Position numbers and translations under genes: made by a program
The notes under the pieces: generated by a model
What the model saw: the letters and a program-made list of their open reading frames with translations, nothing else
Told to the model about the DNA's origin: nothing
Database searches by the model: none
Shown here: in pieces, positions 804 to 63,504 of the stretch
Position numbering within the stretch: position 1 is the first letter of the stretch
Layout of the letters: every line of letters starts with the position of its first letter
Origin: Candidatus Omnitrophota bacterium
GTDB taxonomy: Bacteria; Omnitrophota; Gorgyraeia; Gygaellales; Profunditerraquicolaceae
Direction: 5' to 3'
DNA: 64,000 bases
Assembly (NCBI GenBank): GCA_003598025.1
Contig: QZKH01000003.1
Coordinates: 234,048-298,047 of the forward strand

Positions 804-3800
804 TATTTCACCTTTTCCATTCTCATATCCAGGCAGAGCGCCTGCAATTCTTTAATCAAGACATTAAACGATTCAGGAGTACCGTGGCTTAATCTTTGTT
901 CGCCTTTGACTATGGCTTCATAAATCCTGGTCCTTCCTGAAACATCGTCACTTTTTACCGTAAGCATCTCCTGTAATGTATATGCTGCCCCATAAGCCTC
1001 CAGCGCCCAGACTTCCATTTCACCCAGCCTCTGTCCACCAAACTGGGCCTTCCCGCCAAGCGGCTGTTGTGTAACCAATGAATAAGGCCCGATAGAACGG
1101 GCATGGATCTTTTCGTCAACAAGATGGATCAACTTCATCATGTAAATGTAGCCAACAGTAATCTTATGGTCAAAAGGTTCACCAGTGTAGCCGTCATACA
1201 GCGTGATCTTTCCTTCTTCGGGAAGCTCAGCTTCCTTAAGAAGCTCTTTTATTTCTGACTCGGTGATACTATCAAAAACCGGGCATCCGATTGATAAATT
1301 CAGGATTTTTGCCGCCCAGCCAAGATGCGTCTCCAAAATCTGGCCGACATTCATTCTTGAAGGCACACCTAAAGGATTTAAAACTATATCAACGGTCCTG
1401 CCATCAGGCATAAAAGGCATATCCTCGTCAGGAACGATTCTTGCAACAACACCCTTATTACCGTGCCTACCGGCAAGCTTATCGCCTTCGGCCAGTTTAC
1501 GTTTTGTTGCTATATAGACAACCACCCTTTTTAAAACTCCAGCGGGCAATTCATCTCCCCTCTTGACCTTTTCAATCTCCTGTTCCTGTTCATTTAGCAT
1601 ATCCTGTATCTGCTCATCGAAAGAAACGGATAATATCTTAGCTTCCTCATTTTCATTCAGATCTATCTTTTCAATCTTTGATTTATCTACGCCTAATAAC
1701 TGGCTAAGCCTGGATATTTTTTCAGTCTGCAGAAACTCTATTTCTTGTTTATAATAAGCTTTTATCTCCCTGATCTTCGCCAGTTCTTTACTTTTTTCTT
1801 CTTTACTCTTCCTGCCTCTGTCTTTACGCTGAAAGATGTTTACGTTTACGACCACACCTTCAACGCCGGGAGGGACGGTTAAAGAAGTATCCCTTACATC
1901 GGAAGCTTTTTCGCCGAAGATCGCCCGTAACAACCTCTCCTCCGGGGAAAGTTCGGATTCAGTCTTAGGGGTAACTTTCCCTACTAATATATCACCGGGA
2001 GTCACCTCAGCTCCAATGCGTATAATACCGTCCTCATCCAAGTCCTTAAGCGCTTCTTCACTTACATTAGGTATATCCCTGGTTATTTCTTCATTACCAA
2101 GCCTTGTTTCGGTGGCCTCTATTTCAAATTCTTCAACATGGACTGACGTGAGGACATCATCCTTGACAATTCTTTCACTTACCAGAATAGCGTCTTCAAA
2201 ATTATATCCTCTCCAGGGCATAAAGGCTACCAGGACATTCTTGCCTAGCGCAAGCTCGCCATTCTTCGTCCCGGAACCATCTGCAATTATATCTCCGGAC
2301 TCAACATACTGCCCGGGCTTGACTAAAGGCCTCTGATTTAAACATGTGTCGGCATTAGTCCTCAGGAATTTATTCAAATGGTATGTCCTCTTACCTATAG
2401 TAATAGAGCTTGCGTCCACCTGTATTACTTTACCGGAATTTTCAGCCAAAACAACGGTACCGCTGTCTCTGGCGACTTTTTCTTCCATGAAAGTACCTAC
2501 AAGCGGGGATTCAGTAACCATTAAAGGCACTGCCTGCCTCTGCATATTTGACCCCATCAATGCTCGGTTAGCGTCATCATGCTCTAAGAAAGGTATCAAT
2601 GAAGCGGCTACTGAAACAAGCTGCTTAGGCGATACATCCATATATTCTATATCCTTTGGGTCAACCTTGGGGAAATCGCCTTTAAAACGGCAGGAAATCT
2701 CTTTACCAATAAAGCTGCCTTCGGAATCAACAGGCGCGTTTGCCTGCGCTATAACTTTATCTTCTTCAATATCGGCAGTTAAATATTCTATCTTCTTAGT
2801 TACTCTTCCATTTTCGACTTTTCTATATGGAGTCTCAAGCAAACCTAATTCATTGACCCGCACATAAGTACTAAGAGAAGAGATAAGACCGATATTCGGT
2901 CCTTCAGGGGTCTCAATCGGACAGATTCTTCCATAATGCGAAGGATGAACGTCTCTTACCTCAAATCCTGCGCGCTCGCGGGACAACCCTCCCGGGCCTA
3001 ATGCGCTTAAACGCCTTTTATGAGTCATCTCTGCAAGCGGGTTAACCTGATCCATGAATTGTGAAAGCTGGCTTCTTGCGAAGAAATCCCTTATCTGGTT
3101 AGAGAGTAATTTTGAATTTATAAGGTAATGCACGCTCAAATTGCTCAGGTCACCAAGGATGCTCAGCCTTTCCCTTACCGAACGCTCAACCCTGGACATT
3201 CCGATACGGACCTGGTTCTGCACCAGCTCGCCCACTGTTTTTACTCTTCTGTTACCCAAATGGTCTATATCGTCGATTTTACCCTGCCCGTCTTTAAGAT
3301 TGATCAAATATTCAATTACTCTGATAACAGTCGCCGAATCAAGGATGCGTTTCTCAAGAGACACATCCATTGCCAGCTTTCTGTTCAGGATAAACCTCCC
3401 GGCTCTTTCTAAATCATACCTGGTTGGGTCAAAGAACAATCTGAAAAATAAAGCCTCAGCAGCCTCCTTAGTAACAGGCTCAGTAGGCCTCATTTTATGA
3501 TAAAAATCCAGATAAGCTTCTTCTTTATTTTTGGTTATGTCTTTTTTAAGGGTGTTGGCGATCTCCGGATATTCTTTACCAAAAGCAGAAATTATATCGG
3601 AATCCTGAGAGAAACCTAAAATCCTCAATAGCTGGGTTGCGGGGAAATTTCTTCGCCTGTCAACATAGGCAATCACGGTCTCAGATAAATCATACTTGAA
3701 TTCAAGCCAGGCGCCTCTATACGGGATAATACGGCCATAAAATATTTTCTTGCCCGTAGGGTGGGCCTCCTCTTCAAAGGAAACACCCGGGGAACGCTGT

Positions 3801-9357: not shown

Positions 9358-10290
9358 TTAGAATATTTTAATATAAGATTTTTTCTTAAGGTCGCTGATC
9401 CATTCCTCGATTTTCTCAGCCATCTTCTTCTCAAAAAGATAGGAATATATGCTGTCGCGAGAATCTTCAAGGCTTATCTTCTTTGGAGGGAAAAGATCAT
9501 AAAATAAAAAGATGTAATACGATTCGGCTATCTTAACCGGCCTGGAAAGGCCTCCTTTATTCAGTCTGGAAATCGCAGTTTCGACTTCGGGTTTTAATTC
9601 ACCTTCTTTAACCCATAAAAATTTGTTGATCCTTATGGAATATTCTTTTGAAAGATCCTCAAAACTCTTCCCATCTTTAGCCTCGCCGTAGATTTTATTA
9701 GCCAGCTCTTTGCCGCTTATAACTAGAGCCTTGAATTCTTTTTGAGCAGGCATATTAAAATCTTCCGGATTATTTTCATAAAACGAGGTTACCTCTGAAG
9801 GCCTTATAACTATTTTATCCTTTACCTTCCTTTCAATAATCGCCCTCATAAGCATCTGCTCCCTTATCCTTTTTTCTACATCTGCTAAGGTGAGCCCGCG
9901 CCGCATAAGGTCGCTATCTAAATCCCTGCTTGAACCATAGCGTCTTCTAATGTCGTCAATCCTGGACTTTACACGCATGTCATCGATAGTTATATTCTCG
10001 TTTTTGGCTTCCTGAAGTATAAGCCTGTCGTCAATCAGCTTATCCAAAAGATCGCCTTTTATAGATTCTATATGTTTCTCAGCCTCAAGTTCATTTTTAT
10101 CCTGGAAGTATTGCGCCTTCATAAAATTAACAAATTCACCCATATCCTTTTGTGTTATTGCCTCGTTATTCACTATTGCAACGATCTTGTCCTGGGCAAA
10201 TAGCAAGTTTGTATTCAACAAAAAAATAAAAGTTAAAATTCCGCACAAAAACTTAATTAGGTTTTTCATTCTCATATTTTCCCTGATCAA
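9358..10290 (-). CDS. SurA N-terminal-domain periplasmic chaperone-like protein (signal peptide, no clear PPIase domain)
   Basis: 310 aa. Has an N-terminal signal peptide (LIKFLCGILTFIFLLNTNLLFAQD) and a SurA_N-like helical region. Found next to pdxA/rsmA as in surA-pdxA-ksgA operons. Confidence 0.65.
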   Translation of the reverse strand: MIRENMRMKNLIKFLCGILTFIFLLNTNLLFAQDKIVAIVNNEAITQKDMGEFVNFMKAQYFQDKNELEAEKHIESIKGDLLDKLIDDRLILQEAKNENITIDDMRVKSRIDDIRRRYGSSRDLDSDLMRRGLTLADVEKRIREQMLMRAIIERKVKDKIVIRPSEVTSFYENNPEDFNMPAQKEFKALVISGKELANKIYGEAKDGKSFEDLSKEYSIRINKFLWVKEGELKPEVETAISRLNKGGLSRPVKIAESYYIFLFYDLFPPKKISLEDSRDSIYSYLFEKKMAEKIEEWISDLKKKSYIKIF

Positions 10291-14952: not shown

Positions 14953-16440
14953 CTAATTATTAATCGCTTCCACTAACGCCCTTGCTTTATTCAATGACTC
15001 ATTGTACTCTTTCTGAGGTAAAGAATCGGCGACTATACCGGCTCCAGCCTGGATATAAGCGTATCCATCCTTTAAAACTATAGTCCTTATTGTTATGCAG
15101 GTGTCCATATTCCCGGAAAAAGAAAAATACCCGATACAACCAGCATACGGCCCGCGCCTTACATTTTCAAGCTCATCAATTATCTGCATTGCCCTGACCT
15201 TAGGGCTTCCCGAAACGGTACCAGCCGGAAAACATGCCTTGAGAGCATCAAAACTTGACTTGCCCCTCTTAAGGTATCCGCTTACTTCCGAAACAATATG
15301 CATCACGTGAGAGTATCTTTCAATAGTCATAAATTCTGAGACTTTTACCTTGCCAGCCTGGCAAACCCTGCCTAAATCATTCCTGCCTAAATCCACAAGC
15401 ATTATATGCTCTGAACGCTCTTTAGCGTCATTTAAAAGTTCGGACTCCATTTTTTTATCCTGAGATTCATCCCTGCCCCGCGGCCTGGTACCGGCGATAG
15501 GCCTGGTCTGAGCAAAGCCATCCTCGCAACGAACCAGCATTTCCGGAGAAGAGCCTATCAGGCTGAACTTATCCATTTTTAGGTAAAACATATACGCGGA
15601 TGGGTTAATACTACGCAGTTTCCTGTAAATGTCAAAAGAATTTTTGTTAATTTTTATCTTCAATCTTTGCGAGAGGACAACTTGAATAATATCGCCTTTA
15701 TGTATATATTCTTTGGCTTTCTTGATAATATTCATGAACCCGTCTTTAGTAAAATTAGATCTTAATGTGATTTTATACGGCTTACGCTCCAGGGGACCAG
15801 AAACAGGCATGATTTTCTTAAATTTCATCTCTAAGTGATTGATCTCTTCAACAGCTTGAGAATACAGTTTTTTAACATAATTATTATTTTTGGCAGAACT
15901 TATTCGGGGTAAATAACAAATAGATATGATCTTGATTTTGTGCTTAAGATGGTCAAAGACCAGCAAGCTTTTGGTAAGCATAAACACCGAATCCGGCAGG
16001 TTAAGGTCATCTTTGTTTTTATCGGGAATGTCTTCAATAAATCTGACGGTATCATAGGAAAGGTATCCTATAAAACCTCCGTAAAACCTCGGCAGTCCGT
16101 TGACTTCAACCGGGTGGAAGTCACGCATAATACCTTCAAGCTCTTCAAGCGACCCCTTCGAGGTAACATAAGACTTGATCTTACCCATTGACGGCTTAAT
16201 GATTTTTATTTCTTTATCCCTATTAGAAAAAATCATATGGGGTTTTGTCCCCAGGAATGAAAACCTGGCTATCTTCTCCTGGCCTTCTACCGATTCAAGG
16301 AGGAATGAATATTTATCCTCTTGTATCCTTAGAAATGCTGAAACAGGAGTATCTAAATCAGCGTTTATCTCCTTAAACACAGGAATAACATTGCCCTTCT
16401 TAGCATATTTTAGAAATTGTTTATAATCAGGATAGATCAT
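14953..16440 (-). CDS. chorismate-utilising enzyme, anthranilate/aminodeoxychorismate synthase component I (TrpE/PabB family)
   Basis: 495 aa with chorismate-binding domain motifs (SPEMLVRCEDG..., PIAGTRPRG, GAVGYFS-like GCIGYFSFSG). No trp genes are adjacent, so TrpE versus PabB cannot be resolved. Confidence 0.8.
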   Translation of the reverse strand: MIYPDYKQFLKYAKKGNVIPVFKEINADLDTPVSAFLRIQEDKYSFLLESVEGQEKIARFSFLGTKPHMIFSNRDKEIKIIKPSMGKIKSYVTSKGSLEELEGIMRDFHPVEVNGLPRFYGGFIGYLSYDTVRFIEDIPDKNKDDLNLPDSVFMLTKSLLVFDHLKHKIKIISICYLPRISSAKNNNYVKKLYSQAVEEINHLEMKFKKIMPVSGPLERKPYKITLRSNFTKDGFMNIIKKAKEYIHKGDIIQVVLSQRLKIKINKNSFDIYRKLRSINPSAYMFYLKMDKFSLIGSSPEMLVRCEDGFAQTRPIAGTRPRGRDESQDKKMESELLNDAKERSEHIMLVDLGRNDLGRVCQAGKVKVSEFMTIERYSHVMHIVSEVSGYLKRGKSSFDALKACFPAGTVSGSPKVRAMQIIDELENVRRGPYAGCIGYFSFSGNMDTCITIRTIVLKDGYAYIQAGAGIVADSLPQKEYNESLNKARALVEAINN

Positions 16441-16458
16441 CTTTTAAATTATTTTATT

Positions 16459-16552
16459 CGTTCGAGTCCATAAAACCGCACATTTCAGGGTGCGGATGAA
16501 GTTTGAGCGTTCAGTATTTCGCTCCAAAAAATTTCGGGTTAAAGCCCGAGCA
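16459..16552 (-). repeat. about 100 nt intergenic repeat element, copy 2 (inverted relative to copies at 24447 and 62499); hairpin + T-tract acts as a terminator-like structure after hisI
   Basis: The reverse complement aligns with 24447-24546 and 62499-62597 (gggctttaacccgaa...ttggagcgaaatactga.cg...ccgcaccctgaaatgtgcggttttatgg). The hisI stop codon and last 5 codons (KLLGL*) lie within the element. Confidence 0.75.
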
Positions 16553-16886
16553 GCTTAATTTTTCTAAAGAAACAGCTTCTTTTGCCGGTATGGCAGGCAA
16601 CACCTACCTGTTTTACCTTGATCAATAAGGTATCCATATCGCAATCATAATAAATACTCTTAACAAACTGAAAATGGCCTGAAGTCATGCCTTTTACCCA
16701 ATACTCTTTCCTGGAACGCGACCAAAAACAAGTCTTTTTAAGCTTCAGGGTGCGTTTAATAGACTCTTTATTCATATAAGCAAGCATAAGCACGGCATTA
16801 TCCTTATAATCCTGGATAATGACAGGAATAAGGCCGTTACTATCAAATTTCAAATCTTTAATACTGACTTTTTTCTCTTTTTTCAT
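16539..16886 (-). CDS. hisI: phosphoribosyl-AMP cyclohydrolase (monofunctional)
   Basis: 115 aa of HisI fold with Cys ligands (...[26 protein letters not shown]). No fused HisE domain. Confidence 0.88.
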
Positions 16887-17661: not shown

Positions 17662-18102
17662 TTATTTCATCTTTACGCTAAGGTATCTTCCTAACAGCTT
17701 CCAGGTAACTTTACCGACTCTGCCGTCAGCCGGAATATTATTATCGCGCTGAAAAGCCCTTATGGCATCTTTAGTCTGCCTTCCCAATCTTCCGTCAATT
17801 TTGCCAGGATTGTAACCGGCGTTCTTAAGGGCTAACTGTATTTGCCTTACATTCGGCCTGGATTTTACTTCAGATATTCTGCCGGGCTTAGCCGCCATCA
17901 TTTCATTCCGGGCATTCAAAGCATTTAGTTCACTTTTAAGCGAGTCTACTTCTTCCTGTTTAATCTGAAGCTGCGAGTTTAAAGCAGAAAGTTCGTTTCT
18001 TAATGATTGGATTTCCAAATCTTTCTTTTTGGCTGCCGTGGCGCACCCCTGTAAAAGCAATACTGAAAACACAAGCACGATAACTATGGCCCTTTTTACC
18101 AC
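17662..18102 (-). CDS. lipoprotein with coiled-coil and putative peptidoglycan-binding domain (PG_binding_1-like)
   Basis: 146 aa with a GTG start. Has a lipobox LLLQGC, a heptad-rich coiled coil, and a C-terminal segment ([38 protein letters not shown]) typical of the PG-binding domain. Inserted between hisF and hisA. Confidence 0.6.
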
Positions 18103-24426: not shown

Positions 24427-24546
24427 TGGTATAATTATGAAGCTCCCCGAGCTAAAGCCCGAGGTTTCTTGGAGCGAAATACTGAGCGTACACACTCCCT
24501 CCGCACCTTTCAAGGTGCGGTTTTTGTGGCCGCGAACTTATAAAAT
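24427..24546 (+). ncRNA. candidate small RNA / repeat element copy 1: extended -10 promoter (TGgTATAAT at 24427-24435) followed by about 100 nt conserved element ending in hairpin 24501-24520 + TTTTT
   Basis: Plus strand, antisense to the recA-recX spacer. Homologous copies lie at 62499-62597 (+) and 16459-16552 (-). Hairpin ccgcaccttt-caa-ggtgcgg is followed by ttttt. Confidence 0.5.
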
Positions 24547-60649: not shown

Positions 60650-61345
60650 TTACTTCATCCTCTCTTTTAATGCCCAAAGATATATCCGGATATAATTAGG
60701 CAACAGCCTGAAAACCTTAAAACTGGATTTACCCTTTTCTCTTTCTTTCCATTTTGTGGGGACTTCTGTCACCTTGAAACCATTAAAATAAGCCCTTAAA
60801 GCCAGCTCCATCGATACCTCAAAGCCTTTAGAATAGATAGTTATGCCTTTAATAGCTTCCTTACGGTACATTTTAAAGGCATTTGCTATATCATGGGTAG
60901 GTACACCGATAAGTAAATGCACAGTAAAACCTCCTAACCGTGACAGCATAGCCTTGAATTTCGGCCCTCCCTGCCTCAAACCCCCTTTAATATATCTTGA
61001 GCCGCAAACAACATCATAACCCTGTATTATTTTATCATACATTTTATTGACAGTTTGAAGTTCGTCACACAAATCCGCCATTACCGGCAACAAAACATCT
61101 CCCTTGGCGTTTCCGATACCGCACATTATCGCATTAGCAAAGCCCCTCTCTTTTTCATTATTAACCAGCACTAAGTTAGGATAAGAAGTAGCTAATCTAT
61201 TTACCAATGCATGCGTATTATCGGTCGAATGGTCATTCACGACTACCAGCTCATGCTCTGGTAGCATGGCCTGTTCAAGCTTACTAATAACATCAGCGAT
61301 ATTTGCTTCTTCGTTATATGCAGGGATGATAATAGAGAGTTTCAT
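60650..61345 (-). CDS. glycosyltransferase family 2 (polyprenyl-phosphate sugar transferase-like)
   Basis: 231 aa: LSIIIPAYNEEANI...VVNDHSTDNT...MADL. Confidence 0.85.
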   Translation of the reverse strand: MKLSIIIPAYNEEANIADVISKLEQAMLPEHELVVVNDHSTDNTHALVNRLATSYPNLVLVNNEKERGFANAIMCGIGNAKGDVLLPVMADLCDELQTVNKMYDKIIQGYDVVCGSRYIKGGLRQGGPKFKAMLSRLGGFTVHLLIGVPTHDIANAFKMYRKEAIKGITIYSKGFEVSMELALRAYFNGFKVTEVPTKWKEREKGKSSFKVFRLLPNYIRIYLWALKERMK

Positions 61346-63504
61346 TTAATCAATTTGAATATTTTAATCGTATTATTAGAAAAAACCTCTTTAAATTCAC
61401 CGGGATGTTCAATTGCCCAGTAATATTCTATAGGAAATTCAATCTTTTCAGTCTGATGAAGAGAATAGATAAAAATGAAATCGGTATTACGCCTTTTAAG
61501 ATTGACCAGCCAAATATTATAATCGGCATTCCCGCGGTAATTATTTGGCTCATTTAAATTCTCATGTAATGAGGTAAAATTATAACCCCATTCGTATGAA
61601 CTGTCACTAAAATAATGGGGCATAGCCGGGTCGGTTTTATTGACCGAAACATAATAAACATTATTTTTAAAACCTGTGCCATAAAGCGGGTATACCACCG
61701 GCCTGCCGGCGTAGGCGATATTGTTTGATTGGGTATTATTATTGAGCCATTCCCAGGCATAGGTTGCTTCAGGCCAAAATCCTGAATATTCAACCATTTT
61801 TACATATCTTTTATATTCGTTACGTATATAGAATTTCTGGGCAAGGGTAAGCCCTAAAAAACAGCATAATGCTATTAAGGTTAATGCCCGAACATCCGGT
61901 CTGAATCTTAAAATCGAAGCCTGTCTCTTAATTAAAAAATAAAACAGGGCAAATGTAAGTAATCCGGAATTGGCCAATTCCCAATATGAGGATAACTCCA
62001 GGGACGGAAAAACGATACATAAAAAAATAATAATGGTAACTGCTTTTTTATTTATTCTGAGCTTCTGTATTAAAAAGAATGCGAGCACCATTCCTATAGA
62101 TAAAGCTGCAAATAAATACCTTAAATTAGCAAGGGGTATCACATACCTGTAGGTTAAATACATTAAAAAAGGCAGGATCGAAAAATAAAGCAAAAAATAG
62201 TCTTTTTTGGATTTATTCTTTACAAATATATAAACCGGGGCTATAAGCGAAGCCGGAAGGGTAAAAAATAACGTCTGCACGCCCAAGCCTTCATGGAAAA
62301 GGGCTTTTATCAGGCTATAATCTTCCGGTTTGAAATGAGCCCGGTAAATGACCGGCTCCATGACACCACGTAACAATCTAAAACCGAATAATTCTACATT
62401 AAGCGGATAAAGCGGGTTACCGGTATTTATATAATTCCTCAGATAAGAGTATCCTCCCAAAAACAGCACGGAAATAATAAAAAGAAAAATGGAGCTCATC
62501 GGGCTAAAGCCCGAGGTTTCTTGGAGCGAAACACTGAGCGGCCCAACTCCATCCGTACCTTTAAAGGTGCGGTTTTGTGGCCGCGAACGTATAAAACCCG
62601 CTTTCTTTATCTCTTTAAAAGAAATAAACACATATGGCATAAACAACAACAAACTGTAAGGCAGCCCTACAGTCTTAGTCCCCAGAAGAAGCCCGATACT
62701 TAAACCAAAAAGTATATTATTTTTTAGCGAAAATTCTTCATACAATAATAAAAGAAAATATAAAGCTGACAGGAAATAAAAACACACCATCAGGTCAACA
62801 TAAGCGATCTCCAGCTGTTTAAAATAATTTGGCATCAGCGAGAATAAAGATGCCGCAAATAATGAATAGGGCGAAGATACCCCTATCTTTCTTGCCAATG
62901 CATAAGTTGCCGTAAAGCTAAGCGCAAAAAAGGGAAGCTGCCCCAGGTCAGCGACAAATACGCTCCTAAAAGGCATGATAAGCCATAAGTAGAACAGGCT
63001 GCCATTTATTGGATAATACGAAGGGCTGGGATCGTCAAAAACCGTGATCGGGATGTTTAAATTCCTGTTTTTAAGCCATTCCACAGCAAAGGTAAAATGA
63101 TAATTTAAAGAATCCCAGCCAAAAGGCGGATTGAAAAGATTGATAGAAGATTTAATTACAACAAATCCCGTAATTGTAGAAATAGCTAAAAGTAATAATT
63201 TGCTTTTAAGTAGATCCCCAAGATTAGTTCTTACGTCCTTAATGGAAGGGTTAATTACCGGCCTATTAAAAACAAACATAGTTAAAAACATTATAATCAA
63301 ATTTAAATATATGAGATTTTCAAGGGTCAATGCCCCGGCAATACCTAAGGCCTGTTCTGACAGAATAATCTGCGAAACGTAAATAATAAATGCGCAGATC
63401 AGTGATTCGGCCAGGCCTACAGGCTTAAATCCCCTAAAGGTGATTAGAAAAGCATTAAAAATTACGATAGCATTCATAAATATGCAAGCAAGCAGCATTC
63501 TCAT
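61342..63504 (-). CDS. GT-C-fold membrane glycosyltransferase (ArnT/PMT-like) carrying an in-frame about 33-codon repeat-element insertion
   Basis: 720 aa with more than 12 predicted TMs and a C-terminal soluble domain. The segment IKKAGFIRSRPQNRTFKGTDGVGPLSVSLQETSGFSPM is encoded by repeat-element copy 3 (62499-62597). Confidence 0.6.
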   Translation of the reverse strand: MRMLLACIFMNAIVIFNAFLITFRGFKPVGLAESLICAFIIYVSQIILSEQALGIAGALTLENLIYLNLIIMFLTMFVFNRPVINPSIKDVRTNLGDLLKSKLLLLAISTITGFVVIKSSINLFNPPFGWDSLNYHFTFAVEWLKNRNLNIPITVFDDPSPSYYPINGSLFYLWLIMPFRSVFVADLGQLPFFALSFTATYALARKIGVSSPYSLFAASLFSLMPNYFKQLEIAYVDLMVCFYFLSALYFLLLLYEEFSLKNNILFGLSIGLLLGTKTVGLPYSLLLFMPYVFISFKEIKKAGFIRSRPQNRTFKGTDGVGPLSVSLQETSGFSPMSSIFLFIISVLFLGGYSYLRNYINTGNPLYPLNVELFGFRLLRGVMEPVIYRAHFKPEDYSLIKALFHEGLGVQTLFFTLPASLIAPVYIFVKNKSKKDYFLLYFSILPFLMYLTYRYVIPLANLRYLFAALSIGMVLAFFLIQKLRINKKAVTIIIFLCIVFPSLELSSYWELANSGLLTFALFYFLIKRQASILRFRPDVRALTLIALCCFLGLTLAQKFYIRNEYKRYVKMVEYSGFWPEATYAWEWLNNNTQSNNIAYAGRPVVYPLYGTGFKNNVYYVSVNKTDPAMPHYFSDSSYEWGYNFTSLHENLNEPNNYRGNADYNIWLVNLKRRNTDFIFIYSLHQTEKIEFPIEYYWAIEHPGEFKEVFSNNTIKIFKLIK
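62499..62597 (+). repeat. about 100 nt repeat element copy 3, inserted in-frame within the GT-C glycosyltransferase CDS
   Basis: About 85% identical to 24447-24546. The hairpin ccgtacctttaaaggtgcgg + tttt is retained. The -10 box is degenerate (aaaaat). Confidence 0.8.

Follow-up and report, generated by a model that had tools for sequence, protein, structure and literature searches.

Junction between hisI and trpE

The window analysed here is a 64,000-nt stretch of a Candidatus Omnitrophota contig. Its minus strand carries a co-directional run of genes, hisF-hisI-trpE-rpsP-yajC-secDF, with a repeat element between hisI and trpE; the other gaps in the run are -4 to 17 nt. hisI ends with aag ctg ctc ggg ctt taa (16556-16539), and a 98-nt spacer separates it from the trpE ATG. 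A covariance model of the element family matches 16451-16562 on the minus strand over 112 positions (107.8 bits, E ~1e-23). The junction comprises the following features:

14953..16440, minus strand: trpE/pabB-type chorismate-binding enzyme, the first gene downstream; the orthologue in relatives has PF04715 and PF00425
16441..16448, minus strand: putative original 8-nt hisI-trpE spacer, TTTAAAAG (tttaaaag), by comparison with empty sites
16449..16455, minus strand: remnant of the former hisI end, with the last base of the Ile codon (A), a Lys codon (AAA) and a stop (TAA), read from the sequence and from RKIK-stop being the commonest HisI C-terminus; its first three bases are the right target half
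16456..16557, minus strand (sense): element core, 102 nt or 34 codons, a decayed copy; delimited by the covariance-model match, 63 flanks and two empty sites
16472..16475, minus strand: UUUU after hairpin 2
16476..16495, minus strand: hairpin 2 (6-bp stem, 8-nt loop, -8.7 kcal/mol), the stem of the terminator proposed earlier
16534..16549, minus strand: hairpin 1 (TCGGGC-TTTA-ACCCGA, weakened), with the hisI stop codon inside it
16539..16557, minus strand: new hisI 3' end derived from the element, (AT)T AAG CTG CTC GGG CTT TAA, encoding (I)KLLGL-stop
16539..16886, minus strand: hisI (PRA-CH, PF01502), 115 aa
16558..16561, minus strand: AAAT, the left half of the target AAAT^AAA, within the pre-existing hisI codons Lys-Ile (AAA AT/)

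The preliminary description of this DNA had placed the element at 16459-16552 and had regarded it as the third copy of a repeat, inverted with respect to the other two. The location and the inversion both hold, as the copy at 16.5 kb is on the minus strand and those at 24.4 and 62.5 kb are on the plus strand; the width does not, since the inserted unit is slightly wider (16456-16557). The string gggctttaa, which had been taken for the terminus of the element, is in fact core positions 11-19, the 5' arm and loop of hairpin 1.

Repeat family and predicted fold

The covariance model finds exactly three copies in the window (127, 113 and 108 bits); the next best match scores 17 bits. The same three related segments are also recovered by BLAST and by pattern search. 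The two copies outside the his region, and the gene that contains one of them, are:

24439..24541, plus strand: element core, 103 nt (match 24434-24546, 113 bits), in the recA-recX spacer and antisense to both genes
62491..62592, plus strand: element core, 102 nt (match 62486-62597, 127 bits), inside the gene for a 720-aa protein
61342..63504, minus strand: gene for the 720-aa protein, a conserved Omnitrophota membrane protein with no Pfam hit, adjoining glycosyltransferase genes

Hairpins followed by a T-run are common by chance, and the hisI feature could be an ordinary native intergenic hairpin with a fortuitous likeness to the other two loci. This explanation is refuted by the strength of the match over 112 positions and by the existence of a syntenic site without the element in relatives (see below); it retains practically no probability.

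When the invariant core is searched for in one genome per species, copies turn up in four Candidatus Omnitrophota MAGs and in two MAGs labelled Planctomycetia; five further matches are unrelated chance hits. A two-anchor pattern matches 79 metagenome contigs and yields zero copies in viral contigs. Many of the metagenome matches are at contig ends, as is expected of a multi-copy repeat that breaks assemblies. Over all loci the covariance model finds 96 copies, 78 of them distinct; because the metagenome copies were chosen by the exact two-anchor pattern and many are from a few related samples, these counts are not independent and conservation is overstated.

The fold was derived with RNAalifold from seven copies, and the covariance model was built on that fold. 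The 102-nt core folds, as single-stranded RNA or DNA, into two domains. Domain 1 has a GCUCC/GGAGC stem around a variable hairpin of 6-8 bp. Domain 2 has an AUAC/GUAU stem, a UGA/GAAY internal loop, a GCGGCC/GGCCGC stem, a second variable hairpin and UUUU. Covariation is extensive: 97.2% of cells are paired, and compensatory changes are seen in 19 of the 29 pairs. None of 500 shuffles reaches the observed values, and sliding the pairing partners reduces the paired fraction to 30-43%. Unpaired nucleotides such as GGAGCGAAAUACUGAGCGG and CGAAYGUAU are near-invariant. There are only 44 G-U cells to 30 A-C cells, a slight excess that is compatible with folding of either RNA or single-stranded DNA.

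The hisI copy is among the most decayed members of the family. It keeps 21 of the 29 pairs (family median 29), has the lowest GC of 77 copies and deviates at five of the 42 columns with at least 95% conservation (median 0).

No Rfam family matches the window at the gathering threshold, and none matches the copies of L006, L008 and L009 at E <= 10. The motif CUGANGA defines the hammerhead. A hammerhead-like or kink-turn-like core at CUGA...GAA was considered and rejected, as CUGANGA is absent and there is no Rfam match. A small conserved ORF starting at the element ATG (frame F1) was likewise rejected, since indels break the frame in L006 and L011 and the stems covary. The consensus, translated by hand, is open across the element in three of six frames (F3, R1 and R3), and these peptides are present in spanning ORFs.

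Divergent relatives of the element score 24-55 bits (L099 2481-2597, L028 5408-5513, L046 309-429, L018 8742-8832); their different hairpins and shorter cores suggest older or sister subfamilies. Four other copies carry an extra 16-42 nt in the hairpin 2 loop or after hairpin 1 (L004 596-749, L011 1264-1391, L086 6944-7076, L053 502-635); these may be nested insertions or an expansion segment.

Insertion site and empty sites

Sixty-three distinct pairs of flanks are available, with a modal core length of 102 nt. The left flank is AAAT in 61 of the 63 and the right flank is AAA in 61 of the 63; beyond these positions the flanks are random.

The recA-recX spacer is 170 nt in the window and 71 nt in the locus of the closest RecX relative (78% identity; L101). 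In the orientation of the element, the relative reads AATTAT/AAAATGTC; the window reads AATTAT, then the core (GAAGC...GAACTTAT), then AAAATGTC, and is identical to the relative on either side of the core. The target at this copy is TTAT^AAA, and the inserted unit, as given by the empty site, is the 102-103-nt core. A 105-nt element ending in AAA was considered, as was a target duplication of AAAT; both are rejected, because the recA-recX empty site puts AAA in the target. At hisI, the empty sites of four relatives (L091-L094) contain AGAAAAAT, which matches the left target half of the hisI copy.

No target-site duplication is found in the two comparisons of empty and filled sites (hisI-trpE and recA-recX). 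Nor are there terminal inverted repeats, as inversion of one end (GAAGCUCC...) does not give the other (...GCGAAYGUAU). These comparisons show the putative mobile unit to be the 102-nt core, placed in a fixed orientation at an asymmetric AAAT^AAA target, without duplication and without terminal inverted repeats.

New end of hisI

Among the HisI C-termini compared, the ending RKIKLLGL-stop is restricted to the window. The closest HisI relatives (83-85% identity) end SCFFRKI-stop, and most other HisI proteins end RKIK-stop. An exact look-up of the HisI protein of the window gave no record. It had been proposed earlier that the element supplies the 3' end and the stop codon of hisI. The comparison of C-termini across relatives bears this out: the tail KLLGL is peculiar to the window and absent from the relatives' HisI, and the closest relatives, whose loci are without the element, end RKI-stop.

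The four loci that encode the closest HisI proteins are syntenic (hisB-hisH-hisA-PG_binding-hisF-hisI-trpE-rpsP-yajC-secDF). In all four, hisI abuts trpE (AGA AAA ATA TAA ATG), and the covariance-model search of these loci finds zero copies of the element.

In the window, the present end of hisI on the minus strand is TGT TTC TTT AGA AAA ATT AAG CTG CTC GGG CTT TAA. On the 3' side of the core the window reads A AAA TAA TTTAAAAG ATG; the remainder of the old Ile codon, the Lys codon and the stop codon are still legible. When the left flank is joined to this downstream relic, the ancestral sequence becomes AGA AAA AT^A AAA TAA, which is R-K-I-K-stop, followed by the 8-nt spacer and the trpE ATG; the relatives with empty sites are 78-85% identical and are not direct ancestors.

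The insertion divided the Ile codon at the end of hisI, so that translation of hisI now proceeds into the element, in the frame of its conserved (A)TG. Followed in the consensus, this frame stays open for 24 codons, up to a TGA in the hairpin 2 loop. The hisI copy differs from the consensus at two relevant places. Its first core base is T instead of G, which keeps the Ile, and its hairpin 1 loop has CTTTAA instead of CTAAAG, which places a TAA after KLLGL; these differences hold the new HisI tail to KLLGL. We infer that both arose after insertion as 'healing' changes, and likewise their order.

In a second group of relatives (L095-L097), the hisI-trpE spacer is 126 nt (3343-3468) and HisI ends RRIKLK-stop. 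This spacer was considered as a possible element copy and rejected, as its sequence is unrelated to the element; consequently, the hisI-trpE junction has been remodelled more than once. A separate feature of the his region is a lipoprotein-like PG_binding_1 protein (17662-18102, minus strand), encoded between hisA and hisF here and in all relatives examined; such a passenger is unusual in a his operon.

Terminator-like hairpin upstream of trpE

In the hisI copy, ttttatgg comes directly after hairpin 2 (ccgcaccctgaaatgtgcgg, 16495-16476). Measured from the trpE ATG, the hairpin is 36-55 nt and the end of the U-run 31 nt upstream. The preliminary description was therefore correct in noting a hairpin plus U-tract 30-60 nt upstream of the trpE/pabB start; the observed span is 31-55 nt. 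It went on to interpret the element as co-opted at this place, as a terminator-like structure that separates the his cluster from the chorismate gene; on this reading, the his transcript would end at an intrinsic terminator ahead of trpE.

In common with a canonical intrinsic (rho-independent) terminator, the structure has a GC-rich stem-loop with a U-run directly after it, on the transcribed strand. The hairpin has five G-C pairs, is followed by UUUUAUGG, stands in the sense orientation and is flagged, together with the U-run, as terminator-like by a consensus terminator scan. The insertion has also widened the hisI-trpE gap from 0-8 nt to 98 nt. Dispersed small repeats are known that are transcribed into stable hairpins, among them a terminator-like stem plus U-run, and that can affect genes nearby (PMC10969869); SPRITE is one example of a repeat with terminator-like hairpins (PMC10969869).

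The family as a whole argues against this interpretation. The hairpin and the UUUU are found in every copy (sense, antisense or inside an ORF), nested in the GCGGCC/GGCCGC and AUAC/GUAU stems; the supposed terminator hairpin is thus the element's own second hairpin. The tail that follows it is UUUUCUGG or UUUUGUGG in 61 of the 78 copies, and in the family fold the UUUU is part of the internal loop that separates hairpin 2 from the 3' strand of the GCGGCC/GGCCGC stem. The strength of hairpin 2 does not differ between sense and antisense copies (p = 0.11), and no evidence of selection for a terminator function is seen at the element.

The hisI copy is also a poor candidate on its own. Its hairpin 2 has -8.7 kcal/mol against a family median of -13.8 kcal/mol; it is weaker than in 87% of copies, with just 13% weaker still. 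Unlike a canonical terminator, it has a 6-bp stem, an 8-nt loop and only four consecutive U, is nested in a larger conserved fold and stands mid-operon. Over 12 kb, the scan that flags it reports 15 such sites where shuffled sequence gives 11.3 +/- 3.4; a hairpin plus T-run on its own is therefore not beyond chance.

The position in the operon points the same way. The site of hairpin 2 is not the end of a transcription unit: trpE, rpsP, yajC and secDF come next (gaps 15, -4, 1 and 5 nt), and in relatives hisI adjoins trpE directly. The 31 nt between the U-run and the trpE ATG leave too little space for a promoter, and efficient termination would silence trpE, rpsP, yajC and secDF. A co-opted terminator is accordingly judged unsupported, and we consider it unlikely.

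Instead, the hairpin and U-run between hisI and trpE are simply the second hairpin of the element. Most likely, the transcript that serves trpE-rpsP-yajC-secDF still continues across it, and termination there would be partial at most. Partial termination, or stabilisation of an mRNA 3' end, is possible at the hisI copy; the former is conceivable because a GC-rich hairpin of 6 bp with UUUUAU after it can be enough to end some transcripts.

Copies beside and within genes

Copies lie in both orientations relative to their flanking genes, with approximately 42 sense and 46 antisense in a crude count from mechanical ORF calls. At 11 distinct loci with a sense copy, the upstream ORF terminates at the TGA of AAAT/GA, exactly 7 nt inside the model match. 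Genes with the original ending AAA T^AA A account for this; the T of the target and the GA of the element rebuild the stop codon. A T/GA stop rebuilt at a gene end in this way leaves the protein unchanged.

Other copies are translated. The 62.5-kb core lies in frame and antisense in the gene for the 720-aa membrane protein, where it adds 34 residues in a loop between hydrophobic segments. Exactly those 34 residues are missing from 113 of 121 homologues (approximately 50% identity, approximately 685 aa), and excision of the core in silico gives IKKAGF/IFLFII, which resembles homologue P0009. In orthologues from other lineages, the same A-rich loop has received insertions independently: P0075 (L098) holds a sense copy (67.6 bits, E = 9e-15) and P0078 a divergent relative of the element (24 bits).

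In a radical-SAM/DUF6873 protein (L018), a copy lies between parts 1-94 and 107-228 of the DUF6873 profile. In an ArsP_1 permease (L035), a whole antisense copy is read through as a C-terminal tail. The in-frame insertions claimed here are only those checked against homologues or Pfam; many other ORFs that span a copy are spurious N-terminal start extensions and are not counted.

A search for further proteins with the element peptide used a 35-residue query, which is too short for the purpose; it gave five matches, one of them internal in a 3295-aa protein (P0276). Residues 2239-2272 of this protein are a 34-residue stretch 68% identical to the antisense element peptide, and are a candidate for a further in-frame insertion in a giant protein.

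Nature and mobility of the element

Taken together, the evidence makes the feature between hisI and trpE a probable decaying copy of a small mobile element, non-autonomous and widespread in Candidatus Omnitrophota; the probability of this reading is put at about 0.78. The core would integrate in a single fixed orientation into the asymmetric target AAAT^AAA. Its mobility is deduced from the presence/absence differences and from the flanks. Inspection of the window ORF map reveals no evident transposase, and neither solo ends nor longer autonomous versions of the element are found in approximately 100 loci.

A different view is that the element is a structured RNA of benefit to the host, such as a cis-regulatory UTR module or a small RNA, and that its copies are kept for their function and are not selfish. 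The very strong covariation is consistent with this, as are the near-invariant unpaired segments, the slight excess of G-U over A-C cells and the conservation of the element across hosts whose orthologous proteins are only approximately 50% identical. Such a role is hard to reconcile with presence/absence polymorphism at two loci among close relatives, with similar numbers of sense and antisense copies, or with copies within coding sequences. The fixed target sequence on either flank, the assembly breaks at copies and the zero matches to Rfam families also count against it, and we regard it as very unlikely.

For a mobile element, the site-specific, orientation-specific and duplication-free pattern appears to fit single-strand transposition of the IS200/IS605 type best; a site-specific recombinase would fit it less well. 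A more radical proposal is that the fold itself, as RNA or single-stranded DNA, specifies recognition of AAAT^AAA, by guide or bridge pairing or by intron-like homing. This is a long shot. If true, the element would be a minimal, site-specific mobile module of 34 codons that is compatible with coding, and a phylum-wide generator of protein loop insertions and C-terminal tails; its mover would belong to an enzyme class not yet linked to such small elements.

Comparison with known elements

IS200/IS605 elements lack terminal inverted repeats and target duplications, and insert in one orientation immediately 3' of a fixed tetranucleotide. They have hairpins near their ends, in which compensatory changes are tolerated. 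In its insertion pattern and its near-end hairpins, the Omnitrophota element resembles this general description and that of the PATEs derived from IS200/IS605. It differs from both in that the right flank AAA is conserved, hairpin 2 lies 31 nt from the 3' end, and no Y1 transposase (window ORF map, by inspection) or related full-length IS (approximately 100 loci) was found. Membership of the IS200/IS605 (PATE) group, as judged from these features, is unproven.

Rickettsia palindromic elements (RPEs) are short, structured repeats of approximately 100-150 bp that occur in many copies and are by themselves non-coding (PMC10969869). They are found between genes and also in frame within unrelated protein genes, where the added peptide is accommodated in loops (PMC10969869). 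The Omnitrophota element is similar in having in-frame copies (the 720-aa protein, the DUF6873 protein and the L098 orthologue), and in having a modal length of 102 nt, a multiple of three, with frames F3, R1 and R3 open. It is unlike RPEs in occurring in an unrelated phylum, in its 7-nt asymmetric target AAAT^AAA and exact modal length of 34 codons, and in that three of its six frames are fully open and a stop codon (T/GA) is often rebuilt at gene ends. The element can thus be described as an analogue of RPEs and not as a member of the group, a likeness that concerns behaviour, with no sequence relationship expected.

Other classes of small repeats fit less well. Classical MITEs, derived from DDE transposons, are also small, non-coding, multi-copy and polymorphic for presence/absence; this class was rejected, as the element is without terminal inverted repeats and target duplication. 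Correia and RUP elements have inverted terminal repeats and target duplications; the Omnitrophota element has neither, and its sequence and architecture are different. REP/BIME elements (a single imperfect palindrome of 20-40 nt with a conserved tetranucleotide, linked to RAYT) were also rejected, since the element has 102 nt, two hairpins and conserved unpaired segments. A literature search found no paper that ties Omnitrophota to such an element.

The Omnitrophota element thus joins the small structured non-autonomous repeats as one that is RPE-like in effect and IS200/IS605-like in insertion pattern. Omnitrophota is a poorly studied phylum, known mostly from metagenomes, and here has an RPE-like repeat of unusually clean properties. 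At the his locus, insertion of a mobile element has left its scar in the form of the odd HisI tail and the 98-nt hisI-trpE spacer, and a regulatory terminator should not be annotated there without RNA evidence. A model of the family is useful in annotation, since such elements break assemblies, lengthen ORF calls or produce spurious ones, and insert peptides into real proteins. The pairs of empty and filled sites open the mechanism of insertion to experiment.

Further observations

One other region of the window stands out. Positions 9471-10252 are 782 nt without an ORF of at least 70 aa in a tightly packed region, with no Rfam match at the gathering threshold.

At L061, L089 and L073, separate contigs share one flank of a copy and differ at the other; this indicates recombination between copies or assembly chimeras at the repeat. 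Some short contigs carry two copies each, in the same orientation and 0.2-1.5 kb apart, which suggests that copies are locally very dense in some populations:

L034, 3544-3655 and 3767-3878: paired copies
L051, 1680-1791 and 3117-3228: paired copies
L030, 710-822 and 1329-1440: paired copies
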